Positions 34,442-40,121 of a DNA stretch of 64,000 nt are shown piece by piece. The position numbers were made by a program, and so were the translations under genes. This DNA comes from Escherichia phage ph0011. The notes beneath the pieces were generated by a model that worked only from the letters and a program-made list of their open reading frames with translations, was not told where the DNA came from and ran no database searches. Within the stretch, counting starts at the first letter, position 1. Each line of letters opens with the position of its first letter. Where the stretch lies: sequence record OP557969.1. One strand, given 5' to 3'.

Positions 34442-35068
34442 TTGGAGAAAATCATGACTACATCTGAAAAGTACTGGTGGATTATGGGCCATCCTAAATT
34501 CATCAACGGAGATATGGTTCCCCCAAGGATTGATATCGAACCACATGATGTGTGTCCAATCACAAACCGCATTGAATCATTTAAAGCTCTGAATACAAAG
34601 ACACAATTTTGGGTAGAATTCATCTCACCTATGTACGTTGAGCAAGATGATGAATGGGTACAAGCACATGATTATGAGTTAGATTGCGGTGGTGATACTT
34701 ATGATGAGGCAATTGATGCACTATACAAAAATGTACTAAACACTTATGGTGATTACACCCAACAAGAAGCAGACGATACGTTTAATAAGATCCATGCAGC
34801 CATTTCTACATCATCAATTTACAATTCTGCAAAAACAGTTTGGGAAGAACGTCACGGGTGGAGTTCATCTGTAATTGATGCAGAAGCCAAAGAAACAATT
34901 CTCGAAGACATAAAAAATATAAAAAGTACAATAGAAGCCTTGCGTGAATTTATAAAGTCTTGTACAATAGAACAACAGAAAGAGGCAAAGATGCATTTGG
35001 AGAGTGAAGAATGTAAACTTTGGGTTCTAGAGAAATCTATTGAAAAGGGTATAGACTTAGACTTATGA
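34442..35068 (+). CDS. hypothetical protein
   Basis: ORF track. Confidence 0.5.
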   Translation: MEKIMTTSEKYWWIMGHPKFINGDMVPPRIDIEPHDVCPITNRIESFKALNTKTQFWVEFISPMYVEQDDEWVQAHDYELDCGGDTYDEAIDALYKNVLNTYGDYTQQEADDTFNKIHAAISTSSIYNSAKTVWEERHGWSSSVIDAEAKETILEDIKNIKSTIEALREFIKSCTIEQQKEAKMHLESEECKLWVLEKSIEKGIDLDL

Positions 35069-35433
35069 ATCGTAAACTTGAGAAACTAATTGAAGAACTA
35101 CGCCGGATGCCACCCATCGAGCAAGTGGGGAGTTACAAACGTTATCGTGTGATTGCTCGTGCACTAGATAAGAAAGGTCGTGTATTGGCAACACGTACTA
35201 ATTCTTACACACATACTCACCCAGTACAGAAAGGTTTTGCAATCCGTGCTGGAAGACCACAAGGTGAGTTTCTTCATGCTGAAATTTCATGTTTATTAGC
35301 TTCACGTGCTGAAGTTCATACTTTGTTGATTGCACGGATAAGTAAAGATGGTATTCCAGTTCCAGCCAAGCCTTGTGAGATTTGTACGTTGGCAATTATG
35401 GAATATGGGGTCAAAGAAATTATTCACACATGA
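35065..35433 (+). CDS. cytidine/deoxycytidylate deaminase-like zinc enzyme
   Basis: HAEISCL and PCEIC zinc-ligand motifs with typical spacing. Confidence 0.6.
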   Translation: MNRKLEKLIEELRRMPPIEQVGSYKRYRVIARALDKKGRVLATRTNSYTHTHPVQKGFAIRAGRPQGEFLHAEISCLLASRAEVHTLLIARISKDGIPVPAKPCEICTLAIMEYGVKEIIHT

Positions 35434-36839: not shown

Positions 36840-36942
36840 ACTTGTCATAGGGTGTAGTGCAATTGCTGCATATATGATTTTTTCACCTCCAACCAATGTA
36901 TTACTGCTAATTTGGGCGGTTGTTATATTAGCAGTACTTTAA
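36826..36942 (+). CDS. possible 38-aa hydrophobic peptide
   Basis: MRLAKLVIGCSAIAAYMIFSPPTNVLLLIWAVVILAVL; GGAG 5 nt upstream; terminator follows; not in ORF track. Confidence 0.35.
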   Translation: MRLAKLVIGCSAIAAYMIFSPPTNVLLLIWAVVILAVL

Positions 36943-36943
36943 A

Positions 36944-36973
36944 GCACCCCATAGTGGGTGTTTTTCTTTTTTT
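36944..36973 (+). terminator. rho-independent terminator
   Basis: stem caccc/gggtg followed by 13-nt T-rich run. Confidence 0.6.
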
Positions 36974-37106
36974 GTACAAATAAAAAGCAATGTCTCAATT
37001 CCTTGATATAGGTCAAGAGAAATAACCAGCTATTACGCTATAATGCTTTCTGTTGTTGTTAAATAACTTCACCCCCAGATGATTTCAAAAATACAAGGAG
37101 TGTACT

Positions 37107-38912
37107 GTGCAATTGAATAAATTATACACGGACGTAACGAATTTTCTAAACCAGAGTAATACTGATCTTACAAATGAAAACGCAAATAAAGATGCCAAAT
37201 GTGTAAATACACACAGAGATTTACTTGCTGGTATCTTATCTAAACATTATTCACAAGATGTTATTCCAAAGGATCTAATGCAGTGGCACAATGATGGATA
37301 TGGTCACATTCATGATTTGGACTACTATATTAGTCCATTAACAAACTGTTGTTTGGTTAATTATCCAGATATGCTTAAACATGGGTTTACTATCGGGTGT
37401 GCTAAAATCGAAGAACCAAAGAGTTTTAGTGTAGCATGTACGGTGCTAACACAGATTGTACAAGCTGTTGCAAGTTCCCAATATGGTGGTCAATCGTTGG
37501 CTCACATTGATGTCGGATTGGAACCTTATGTACAAAAGTCTTGGGAAAAGTTATTAGAAAAACAAAAGAAATATAATCTAAGCGATGATTTTATTGAAGA
37601 AGAATTACGAAAAGAAGTATATGATGGGTGTCAAACATTACTATATCAGACCAATTCAATGATTAGCACTAATGGACAAGCTGCATTCATTTCTCTTAGT
37701 TTAGGACTTAATACTTCCAAATTTGGAAAATTAATCACTGAACAGTACTTGAAAGTTCACGAGAATGGTTTAGGTAAAGATAAGATTACACCAGTGTTTC
37801 CTAAAGTTATTTTCTTTCTACAAGATGGTATTAACATGAATGTCAATGATAGTAATTATGATCTTAAACAGTTAGCTATGCGTTGTGCATCAAAAAGAAT
37901 CTATCCAGATTTTGTTTCAGTACCATTAAATCATAAAGTGACGGGAAGTAGTAGCACTGCGGTAACACCGATGGGCTGTCGTTCATTCTTAGGAAAATGG
38001 GAAGATTCAAATGGAAATGAACAATACAACGGTCGCTTCAATTTAGGTGTAGTTTCTATCAATTTACCACTAATTGCTCTTGAAAGTGCCTCAGATGGAG
38101 AGTTTTTTGATAAAATAGACGAGCATATGAATATTGCATATCGTGCTCAGATGAACCGCGTAGAGCGTTTAAAAGGTACAAAAGCGAAACAGAATCCAAT
38201 TTTGTTTATGGAAGGTGCATTAACACGTTTAAGTGCAGAAGAAACTATTGACAAGCTATTTTACAATGGTTATGCTAGTATTAGTATTGGTTATGTTGGA
38301 CTTGTTGAATGTTCGGAAATCCTCACTGGTTCTATCAGTAAGGAGTTTTGTATGTCAGTACTGAATTATATGAAAGTAAAATGCGATGAGTTCAAAAAAG
38401 AAAGTAATATTGCTTTTAGTCTATATGGAACTCCAGCAGAGTCGCTTTGTTATAAATTTGCACGTTGCATTGAAGCAAAATATCCTTCAGTTCTCAAACG
38501 AGATTTCATTACAAATTCATTCCATCAACCAGTATGGGTTGAAAGTTCCGCTTTTGAAAAGTGGGATTATGAGGAAAACTTTGCGTATCTAAGCAATGGT
38601 GGGAATATTAGCTATGTTGAAACACCAAACCTGGCTAATAATATACAAGCACTTGAAACATTGATCAATTATGCATATGATAAAATTCCATATTTTGGAA
38701 TTAATCAGAAAGTAGATAAGTGTTTTGAATGTAATTTTGAGGGAGAATTTAGTGTAGATAAAAATGGTTTTCATTGCCCTGTATGTAATAACAGAAATGA
38801 GCGAACAATGTCTGTTATACGTAGGGTATCTGGATATCTTAGTGCACCAAATAGTCGCCCGTTTAATAAAGGTAAACAAGCTGAAGTAATTCAGCGTATA
38901 CAGCATATGTAA
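37107..38912 (+). CDS. nrdD: anaerobic ribonucleoside-triphosphate reductase, class III
   Basis: collinear with T4 NrdD ([23 protein letters not shown] zinc site, C-terminal glycyl-radical RRVSGYL); GTG start after AAGGAG; uninterrupted ORF. Confidence 0.9.
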
Positions 38913-38923
38913 GGAGATATATT

Positions 38924-39286
38924 ATGTCAATTCAAGGTAAACAAGTAATGTCAGGTGAGCACATCGGAACCATCATGCTGGTGGATAATGATATTGCACG
39001 TATTATTGTATCTAAAACATTTTCAGAAAATGATGAAGTACTTTTGAGTACTTTTGACGGCGAAGAACTTCGTGACGTTCAGGTTAAACATGAACCTGGT
39101 ATTGAAGGTGGTCAGCATTTGAATGTAAATGTTCTATCTAAAGAACAACTCATTGATGCACAAAATAACCCTGAAAAGTATCCACAGCTTACTATTCGTG
39201 TTAGTGGTTATGCAGTACGTTTCAATTCACTAACAAAAGAACAACAAGATGATGTAATTTCTCGTACATTCACAAAAGAACTATGA
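38924..39286 (+). CDS. autonomous glycyl-radical cofactor (GrcA/YfiD-like; T4 Y06I-like)
   Basis: [10 protein letters not shown]...[34 protein letters not shown] nearly matches the GrcA / pyruvate formate-lyase C-terminal glycyl-radical domain. Confidence 0.85.
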
Positions 39287-39612
39287 TGGATTTAAAACCA
39301 ATTGTAGTGAACAAATACAAAGAACCGTATGATGTGTACATTGGTCGTGGGTCTAAATGGGGTAACCCATTTACCCATATCAATGATAAACAGACAAAAG
39401 CCGAATTCATTGTTGCTACAAGGGAAGAATCAATTGAAAAATTCCGAGAATACATTATTGACCGTATTTCTAATGGCGAAATTAAAATTGATGATTTACT
39501 TGAATTAGCAGGTAAACGTCTTGGATGTTTCTGCAAACCAAAATCATGTCACGGCGATGTTCTTGTTGAAATAGTGAGTGCAATATTAGATGAATTACCA
39601 GACGATAATTAA
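39283..39612 (+). CDS. hypothetical protein with C-terminal [11 protein letters not shown] motif
   Basis: ORF track; Cys/His cluster. Confidence 0.5.
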
Positions 39613-40069
39613 AGATGACCTTATTAATGGTGAGGGGGTGAGGTGCTCCCTTTTTGTTAGTGGGTGTAGCCATTGTTGTGCCAAATGCTTCAACGAAAAG
39701 GCATGGGATTATAGAAGTGGCCAAGAGTTCAGTACTGAAACAATTGATATAATTTTAGCTGAACTCAGTAAACCGTACATTAGTGGGTTATCACTACTTG
39801 GTGGAGATCCACTAATGAAAAAGAACATCGAAACAATTTTAGAACTATGTAAAATTGTAAAAGATACTTATCCAAATAAAACTATTTGGTGCTGGAGTGG
39901 GTATACTTTAGAAGAGATTATGGATAATCATGCATCTCCAATACTGGAGTACATAGATGTATTGGTTGATGGTAAATTCATAGAAGCAGAAAAGAATTTA
40001 GAATTACCATTTAGAGGCTCTAATAATCAACGTATTCTTCGCAAAGGCGTAGATTATGCATTATCTTGA
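39590..40069 (+). CDS. nrdG: anaerobic ribonucleotide reductase activating protein (radical SAM)
   Basis: collinear with T4 NrdG (MNY start, Cys cluster GCSHCCAKC, LLGGDPL, RGSNNQRI). Confidence 0.85.
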   Translation: MNYQTIIKDDLINGEGVRCSLFVSGCSHCCAKCFNEKAWDYRSGQEFSTETIDIILAELSKPYISGLSLLGGDPLMKKNIETILELCKIVKDTYPNKTIWCWSGYTLEEIMDNHASPILEYIDVLVDGKFIEAEKNLELPFRGSNNQRILRKGVDYALS

Positions 40070-40098
40070 TATTACAGAAATGTGGAAATATATGAAGA

Positions 40099-40121
40099 AG
40101 CACCCTTTGGGTGCTTTTTTT
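40099..40121 (+). terminator. rho-independent terminator
   Basis: stem agcaccc/gggtgct followed by TTTTTTT. Confidence 0.7.

Follow-up and report, generated by a model that had tools for sequence, protein, structure and literature searches.

An anaerobic nucleotide-reduction operon with a GrcA-like spare-part protein and a putative FNR-type promoter in an Asteriusvirus-like jumbo phage

The locus described here lies on a 64,000-nucleotide stretch of DNA of Escherichia phage ph0011 (record OP557969.1), which was analyzed as a whole and is called the window below. Its best nucleotide match is phage UE-S1 (90%), and its source is an Asteriusvirus-like phage of the PBECO4 group, i.e., a Rak2-like jumbo coliphage. 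The open reading frame (ORF) list of the window gives four closely packed ORFs on the plus strand, which encode the class III ribonucleotide reductase NrdD, a GrcA-like glycyl radical protein, a DUF4326 protein, and the NrdD activase NrdG (Table 1). An earlier note on this DNA had placed nrdD, a GrcA-like ORF, and nrdG at 37107–40069. All three were indeed found there and their identities hold at family-specific thresholds, but the fourth gene, DUF4326, had been overlooked inside the same coordinates. The genes overlap or are closely spaced and an intrinsic terminator lies on both flanks, hence their assignment to one operon; terminators are also annotated at both matching places in the UE-S1 record. 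The upstream terminator is predicted to shield the operon from transcription coming from upstream. It is likely that the module forms a self-contained four-gene operon, running from this terminator through a putative FNR-type promoter, nrdD, grcA, DUF4326, and nrdG to the closing terminator, and that its GrcA would serve to repair the pyruvate formate-lyase (PFL) of the host. The gene content is already known and annotated in public records and adds little in itself. What is new here, and worth following up, is the putative FNR-type promoter, the polymorphism of the grcA slot, and an alternative intron site.

Table 1. Position of the features of the nrdD–nrdG locus in the window
Feature	Position	Strand	Description
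Upstream intrinsic terminator	36941..36973	+	9-bp stem and U-run; terminator scan; fold -11.2 kcal/mol, z -3.5
FNR-type box (putative) TTGATATAGGTCAA	37003..37016	+	9/10 consensus positions of TTGATnnnnATCAA
-10 hexamer TATAAT	37039..37044	+	Perfect; 22 nt past FNR-type box; no -35 match
TAAATA block	37060..37065	+	Invariant in seven phages of four groups; ~10-15 nt after inferred start
nrdD	37107..38912	+	Class III (anaerobic) ribonucleoside-triphosphate reductase, 601 aa; GTG start
Empty intron insertion site	38048..38049	+	Codon 314/315 (between NLG and VV), beside active-site Asn
grcA-like gene	38924..39286	+	120 aa; autonomous glycyl radical cofactor, a pyruvate formate-lyase "spare part"; preceded by its own AAGGAG (38911-38916)
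DUF4326 gene	39283..39612	+	109 aa; ATGA (4 nt) overlap with grcA stop; 23-nt overlap with nrdG start
nrdG	39590..40069	+	Radical-SAM activase of NrdD, 159 aa
Closing intrinsic terminator	40094..40121	+	12-bp stem and U-run; fold -16 kcal/mol, z -6.3

NrdD was recognized by profile search (Pfam NRDD, E 1.4e-164) and scores above the NCBIfam equivalog cut-offs (NF006732, 769 bits vs 657; TIGR02487, 531 vs 326). Its alignment with the structure of T4 NrdD (1H78, E 1e-164) runs from end to end and, as in T4, an ATP-cone is lacking. Its key residues include Cys81 and Cys82 (TNCC), Met289-Gly-Cys291 (PMGCRS), Asn312, the zinc-ribbon cysteines 539, 542, 557, and 560 (CFEC...CPVC), and the glycyl-radical Gly576 within an RVSGY motif. 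All the listed catalytic and zinc-binding residues match in the 1H78 alignment, and only the neighbors of the glycine in the radical motif differ, this motif being RTCGY in T4 NrdD and RVCGY in Aeh1 NrdD. The RVSGY motif (window 38830-38844, NrdD residues 572-577) is the PFL/GrcA form and is found in the whole jumbo-phage group. The nrdD ORF is complete: it includes a glycyl-radical domain and closes with TAA. NrdG is assigned on similar grounds (Fer4_12, E 2.6e-52; TIGR02491, 195 bits vs a cut-off of 126), and its cluster motif is Cys26-x3-Cys30-x2-Cys33 (CX3CX2C). The overall organization resembles the T4 nrdD–mobC–nrdG segment, with a NrdD of ~600 aa, NrdG encoded downstream, and accessory cargo in the gap, which is occupied by mobC in T4.

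The GTG start of nrdD lies six nt past an AAGGAG (37095-37100); in the window, the ATG farther upstream is out of frame owing to a 1-nt indel. The 621- and 622-aa NrdD proteins of UE-S1 (locus L001, 1744) and PBECO4 (locus L002, 1740) are probably annotated with a start too far upstream, since the 601-aa form is the one with which their conserved ribosome-binding site and start line up.

As for the reductant, the Met289-Gly-Cys291 motif is identical to that of T4 and a third cysteine is lacking, as in the formate type. We take a methionine two residues ahead of the thiyl cysteine to be the mark of this type. The class III reductases of E. coli, T4, and L. lactis are formate users (PMC4390871; PMC4009431), and a Cys-Met proposal has been made in this context (PMC4390871). 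By analogy with these enzymes, the window NrdD would reduce nucleoside triphosphates (NTPs) with formate under anoxia.

The 120-aa protein encoded behind nrdD matches Pfam Gly_radical (E 1e-17), with the glycyl-radical Gly95 in an RVSGY motif. Among structures in the Protein Data Bank, E. coli GrcA (6OWR, E 3.8e-31) ranks first and the C-terminus of PflB next. The identity is 54% with E. coli GrcA (66 identities in a 123-column BLASTP alignment, residues 3-120) and 58% over the full length with T4 Vs.6. The T4 homologue that the earlier note had named Y06I is real and corresponds to this Vs.6, of which Y06I is the old name. The description of the C-terminal 60 aa as "almost identical" to GrcA/YfiD in that note went too far: the C-terminal 62 aa are highly similar, sharing 48/62 positions with E. 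coli GrcA and 49/61 with PflB (77-80%), whereas in T4 Vs.6 a single position of the last 60 aa differs from E. coli GrcA. The N-terminal half is also homologous to GrcA, the TIGR04365 alignment covering residues 14-120 and phrog_1209 giving a full-length match (E 1.6e-50); in GrcA, this half has a role in binding the cleaved PFL (PMC8683613). The protein thus shares with T4 Vs.6 and E. coli GrcA/YfiD a stand-alone format of ~120 aa, a C-terminal radical domain copying PflB, and a homologous N-terminal half. It differs by the location of its gene inside the nrdD–nrdG operon, T4 vs.6 being ~17 kb away from nrdDG, and by the lower identity of its C-terminal domain to the host proteins. Alignment with T4 NrdD, Y06I, and E. 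coli GrcA, which the earlier note had proposed as a check, upheld the identities, and its observation and interpretation are supported with these minor corrections.

Outside RVSGY, the C-terminal domain of the phage GrcA is unrelated to the C-terminus of the phage NrdD, while it is 80% identical to that of host PflB, which indicates PFL as the target. YfiD and Y06I reconstitute oxygen-cleaved PFL (Wagner et al. 2001, as reported in PMC8683613), and both rescue the cleaved enzyme once activated by the PFL activase, PFL-AE (PMC8683613; PMC12338860). The window GrcA would, by homology, be activated by the host PFL activase and replace the radical domain of cleaved PflB.

Upstream of nrdD, the putative FNR box has the form TTGAT-N4-GTCAA, departs at one position from the consensus TTGATnnnnATCAA, and is followed by a -10 hexamer. 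A transcription start near 37051, 7 nt after TATAAT, would put the center of the box at -41.5. Class II FNR sites are located at -41.5 ± 4 from the transcription start (PMC3688515), and the spacing between box and TATAAT in the window is predicted to correspond to this class II geometry. The combination of box, 22 nt, and TATAAT occurs once in the window, against 0.08 expected. In the host, nrdD, yfiD, and focA-pflB are FNR-activated (PMC3688515; for nrdDG, also PMC4009431). The phage signal resembles the E. coli FNR promoters of nrdDG, yfiD (grcA), and focA-pflB in its consensus-type box and in its predicted class II position around -41.5, and the genes behind it form the same functional set as those switched on without oxygen in E. 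coli (PMC3688515; PMC4009431). It differs from them in being a predicted signal on a lytic phage genome, with one promoter for reductase, activase, and spare part, where the host has separate operons.

The conservation of this box has been followed among Rak2-like jumbo phages of Escherichia, Klebsiella, Salmonella, and Yersinia. A 9/10 or 10/10 box was found 90-106 nt from nrdD in 12/12 fetched relatives belonging to four groups, and also in all ten Rak2-like loci from IMG/VR that include the upstream region, hence in 22/22 nrdD upstream regions examined. The 10/10 form is present in UE-S1, TH47, the K64-1-like and Munch-like phages, Yersinia phage fHe-Yen9-03 (Yen9-03 below), and several IMG/VR relatives. 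The half-sites hardly vary at all, in contrast to the N4 spacer and the neighboring intergenic DNA. In 7/12 fetched loci the perfect box occurs exactly once per locus, always upstream of nrdD, the other five having the 9/10 form. In the relatives (L001 1701, L003 1696, L011 3087, L013 2690, L014 3093), 22-23 nt separate the box from a downstream TATAAT that is usually perfect. The TAAATA block just downstream may be an element of the 5' untranslated leader or a second promoter, of phage type.

No perfect box was detected anywhere in the fetched stretches of T4, T5-like phages, RB43, and Aeh1, and none with at most one mismatch within 1.5 kb upstream of grcA/vs.6 (T4, RB43, T5-like, and other T4-like phages) or of Aeh1 nrdD. 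In the 300 nt scanned upstream of T4 nrdD, there was no box with fewer than two mismatches and none with a matching -10. FNR-like boxes were also absent upstream of nrdD in Tequatrovirus-like IMG/VR loci. A generic scan of IMG/VR for an FNR box plus TATAAT returned mostly random matches (at least 120), with one beside nrdD among the matches listed. Reports of FNR-dependent phage promoters were not found in the searchable literature.

FNR-like boxes (9/10 or 10/10) were observed 60-95 nt upstream of nrdD in the unrelated IMG/VR lineages L157, L160, L201, L198, and L203, and others lie ~224-239 nt upstream of nrdD in L165-L169 and L173. FNR control of phage nrdD may thus be more general.

A 100% identical GrcA protein is already present in NCBI, ENA, and Logan (contigs of ~350 kb), and GrcA homologues occur in 1,594 phage records, including T4-like vs.6, T5-like, and others. 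Among the Asteriusviruses, only UE-S1, TH47, and A4 cover the whole query, at ~95%; PBECO4 and ~30 others cover 82% of it because grcA is missing there. PBECO4 has 81 bp in place of window positions 38837-39282, encoding only a divergent 3' end of nrdD. The last ~25 nrdD codons (window 38837-38912 vs L002 3533-3608) indeed differ between the grcA carriers and PBECO4, and the PBECO4 tail (GNPSSRGFNKGKQQECCERIQHK) resembles the Munch-like one. The boundary between presence and absence of grcA is thus a mosaic recombination joint rather than a clean deletion.

The same operon frame and FNR-type box are found in the PBECO4-type, K64-1-like, Munch-like, and Yen9-03 modules, with NrdD 72-95% identical, and the modules differ in what stands between nrdD and nrdG. 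The gene arrangement of the window is that of phage A4 and of the K64-1-like Klebsiella phages (nrdD–grcA–DUF4326–nrdG). The Munch/SE_PL-like Salmonella phages lack DUF4326 (nrdD–grcA–nrdG), Yen9-03 has three further, unrelated ORFs (nrdD–ORF–grcA–ORF–ORF–nrdG), and PBECO4 carries DUF4326 only, grcA being absent from most Asteriusviruses. In TH47, a free-standing gene for a 328-aa HNH-type endonuclease (L003 5627-6613) is inserted between DUF4326 and nrdG. The gap is empty in L149, L153, L155, and L161, and the IMG/VR survey, whose nrdD loci were gathered by an alignment-based search (a single-protein NrdD search gave two loci), provided further relatives with nrdG straight after nrdD or with other inserts. 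In total, at least five Rak2-like lineages have grcA in the nrdD–nrdG gap, and in Aeh1-like phages it directly follows nrdG, as vs.6. Relative to the K64-1-like, Munch-like, and Yen9-03 proteins, the window proteins show 66-77% identity for GrcA, 72-74% for NrdD, and 71-79% for NrdG, the divergence of GrcA running parallel to that of the two others. Two simpler histories, an insertion of grcA in the lineage of the window and an ancestral grcA with a single loss in PBECO4, were both dropped in view of its patchy presence in the IMG/VR survey. It is defensible to describe grcA as an old, dispensable resident of a variable nrdD–nrdG slot, with repeated loss or exchange.

Taken together, these features suggest the following scheme. 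In an anoxic cell, the [4Fe-4S] FNR dimer of the host would bind the box at -41.5 and recruit sigma-70 RNA polymerase to a promoter having a perfect -10 and no -35. NrdG would then use S-adenosylmethionine to put the glycyl radical on Gly576 of NrdD, as expected from homology, and NrdD, drawing on formate as reductant like the T4 and E. coli enzymes, would convert NTPs to the deoxynucleoside triphosphates needed to synthesize phage DNA. In parallel, the host PFL activase would generate the radical on Gly95 of GrcA, which would replace the cleaved C-terminal radical domain of host PFL in the manner of Y06I and YfiD. Formate, the presumed reductant of NrdD, as well as acetyl-CoA and ATP, could thereby keep flowing in micro-oxic cells; the link between NrdD and PFL-derived formate is our own proposal. 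DUF4326 would probably be a passenger in the gap. We lean, with modest confidence, toward the view that the oxygen-labile genes of the phage are wired to host FNR and transcribed only when FNR is active, GrcA sustaining the supply of PFL formate for the reductase.

Several observations weigh against this coupled and oxygen-gated scheme. grcA is missing from most Asteriusviruses and from many Rak2-like relatives that keep nrdD–nrdG and the FNR-type box, and is thus dispensable for the reductase. It lies far from nrdDG in T4, RB43, and T5-like phages, so that a functional coupling to nrdDG is not general. Genes for homing endonucleases and other unrelated genes accumulate in the gap as well, and the adjacency of grcA may therefore be incidental. 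The gap would then be a hot spot of recombination or insertion, with grcA and DUF4326 as independent passengers and with GrcA repairing PFL for energy metabolism, without any special link to nucleotide reduction. The varied cargo of the gap, from nothing to mobC or an HNH endonuclease, fits this explanation, as do the DUF4326 homologues found elsewhere away from nrdDG; we regard it as possible but rather doubtful. Indeed, the position of grcA has been kept in five diverged Rak2-like lineages, with adjacency found again in Aeh1-like phages, and GrcA has diverged in parallel with NrdD and NrdG. The shared FNR-type promoter would moreover provide the same oxygen-dependent expression as the host gives to yfiD, and PFL produces the reductant of a formate-type reductase. 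Similar reservations apply to the promoter. Host-FNR, oxygen-gated expression is predicted from DNA sequence, the transcription start is deduced from the -10 hexamer alone, and the pattern was defined after the site had been seen. Boxes of the 9/10 type are not enriched in the window (14 found vs 10 expected), their frequency in this AT-rich genome being that of chance, and the weight of the FNR assignment thus rests on conservation. The palindrome could instead be the operator of a phage regulator, or a chance occurrence, the operon following a normal temporal program whatever the oxygen level. The invariant TAAATA, if a phage-type promoter, and the weaker -10 of some relatives (TATTTT, TTGAAT) would agree with this, which nevertheless looks like the less probable option. 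Both half-sites agree fully with the FNR consensus, having TTGA where CRP sites have GTGA; many relatives show the 10/10 form, and the box stays unchanged where the bases around it drift; and the distance between box and -10 is throughout the one canonical for class II. In addition, all known hosts (Escherichia, Klebsiella, Salmonella, Yersinia) possess FNR, and the genes behind the box encode oxygen-labile enzymes whose host counterparts are FNR-activated.

The nature and the target of the GrcA-like protein have to be weighed likewise. With 129.5 bits, it falls under the curated NCBIfam TIGR04365 equivalog cut-off of 170, which speaks against its assignment as GrcA. The validated T4 Vs.6 also falls under this cut-off (153.3), and so do five further phage GrcAs, in a range of 105-140 that includes the window protein. 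The cut-off is tuned to bacterial proteins and is no argument against membership; as it excludes these phage GrcAs, automatic annotation tends to "pyruvate formate-lyase" or "hypothetical." Some databases indeed give the former label to the GrcA-like ORF, which could suggest a decaying fragment, either the tail of nrdD after a frameshift or an acquired pseudogene of PFL, as the earlier note had considered. This is extremely improbable, and the fragment reading may be taken as already refuted: the nrdD frame is complete and includes a radical domain and a stop codon, a separate ribosome-binding site precedes grcA, and the GrcA-like protein has the length of T4 Vs.6, aligns with GrcA over nearly its full length including the N-terminal half, and is conserved across several phage groups. 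The gene is also under purifying selection, with dN/dS ~0.11 vs relatives and, for its C-terminal half, dN 0.007 vs dS 0.47-0.57 (against UE-S1 and TH47) and dN 0.040 vs dS 0.40 (against A4), and is therefore functional, being neither a pseudogene nor an nrdD fragment. A functional GrcA might still be a spare part for the phage NrdD, or be activated by NrdG, the operon then forming a self-contained kit of enzyme, activase, and repair protein. The location of grcA between nrdD and nrdG in one operon could be understood in this way, as could the PFL/GrcA-type RVSGY of the window NrdD where T4 and Aeh1 have RTCGY and RVCGY, and spare parts for other glycyl radical enzymes are an open possibility in the field (PMC8683613). 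However, the similarity of the GrcA C-terminal domain to NrdD stops at the five-residue motif, the relatives without grcA have the same RVSGY NrdD, and for the T4 homologue it was PFL-AE that served as activase and PFL that was rescued. The repair of NrdD itself is thus unlikely, and such a kit as a whole very much so.

If the preferred scheme of an FNR-gated operon is correct, a lytic phage promoter read by FNR would clearly illustrate how a virus can sense the physiology of its host through the host's own regulator, and FNR gating would explain how gut phages avoid producing useless oxygen-labile enzymes. The repeated linkage of grcA and nrdDG suggests a metabolic coupling in which PFL-derived formate feeds the phage reductase. 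The presence or absence of grcA, DUF4326, intron, and homing endonuclease among near-identical phages provides natural knock-outs.

The T4 nrdD gene is interrupted near codon 177-181 by a group I intron with I-TevII. The window nrdD has no intron, as the earlier note had stated: its ORF is continuous, and no Rfam family match was obtained anywhere in the window. That note had also suggested looking for intron-like structured RNA at the same site in related phages; a probable intron does exist in relatives, but at another site than in T4, codon 314/315. Two near-identical relatives whose GrcA protein is unchanged, L019 and L020, contain a 354-nt insertion exactly between these two codons (1772-2125), with a full-length match to RF00028 (39 bits, E 1.5e-8) under the gathering score of 50. 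TH47 has a 1173-nt form of the same element (L003 2741-3913), which includes an ORF for a 279-aa GIY-YIG homing endonuclease. Rfam detected no group I intron in TH47 at the gathering or E-value threshold, because the homing-endonuclease ORF splits the element. From these sequence matches, the insertion of the close relatives is probably a group I intron. A piece of the endonuclease gene, from its 3' end, persists in the ORF-less 354-nt form.

The third gene of the operon belongs to the DUF4326 family (PF14216; Pfam E 3.2e-24, 85.8 bits vs a gathering score of 25). Conservation in this family is strong. Its homologues, of which 35 were sampled from a wide range of metagenomic contigs, are 55-88% identical to the window protein and share an invariant C-x-C-x-P-x2-C-H-G-D motif. 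Published comparative analyses predict DUF4326 to be an enzyme of ADP-ribose-related metabolism. DUF4326 is a widespread small phage protein and, because its homologues elsewhere are not linked to nrdDG, its gene is probably a passenger in the nrdD–nrdG gap. Finally, a gene for a 122-aa cytidine/dCMP-deaminase-like protein lies at window 35065-35433, ~1.7 kb upstream of the operon, and its position is kept in the K64-1-like, Munch-like, and Yen9-03 phages.

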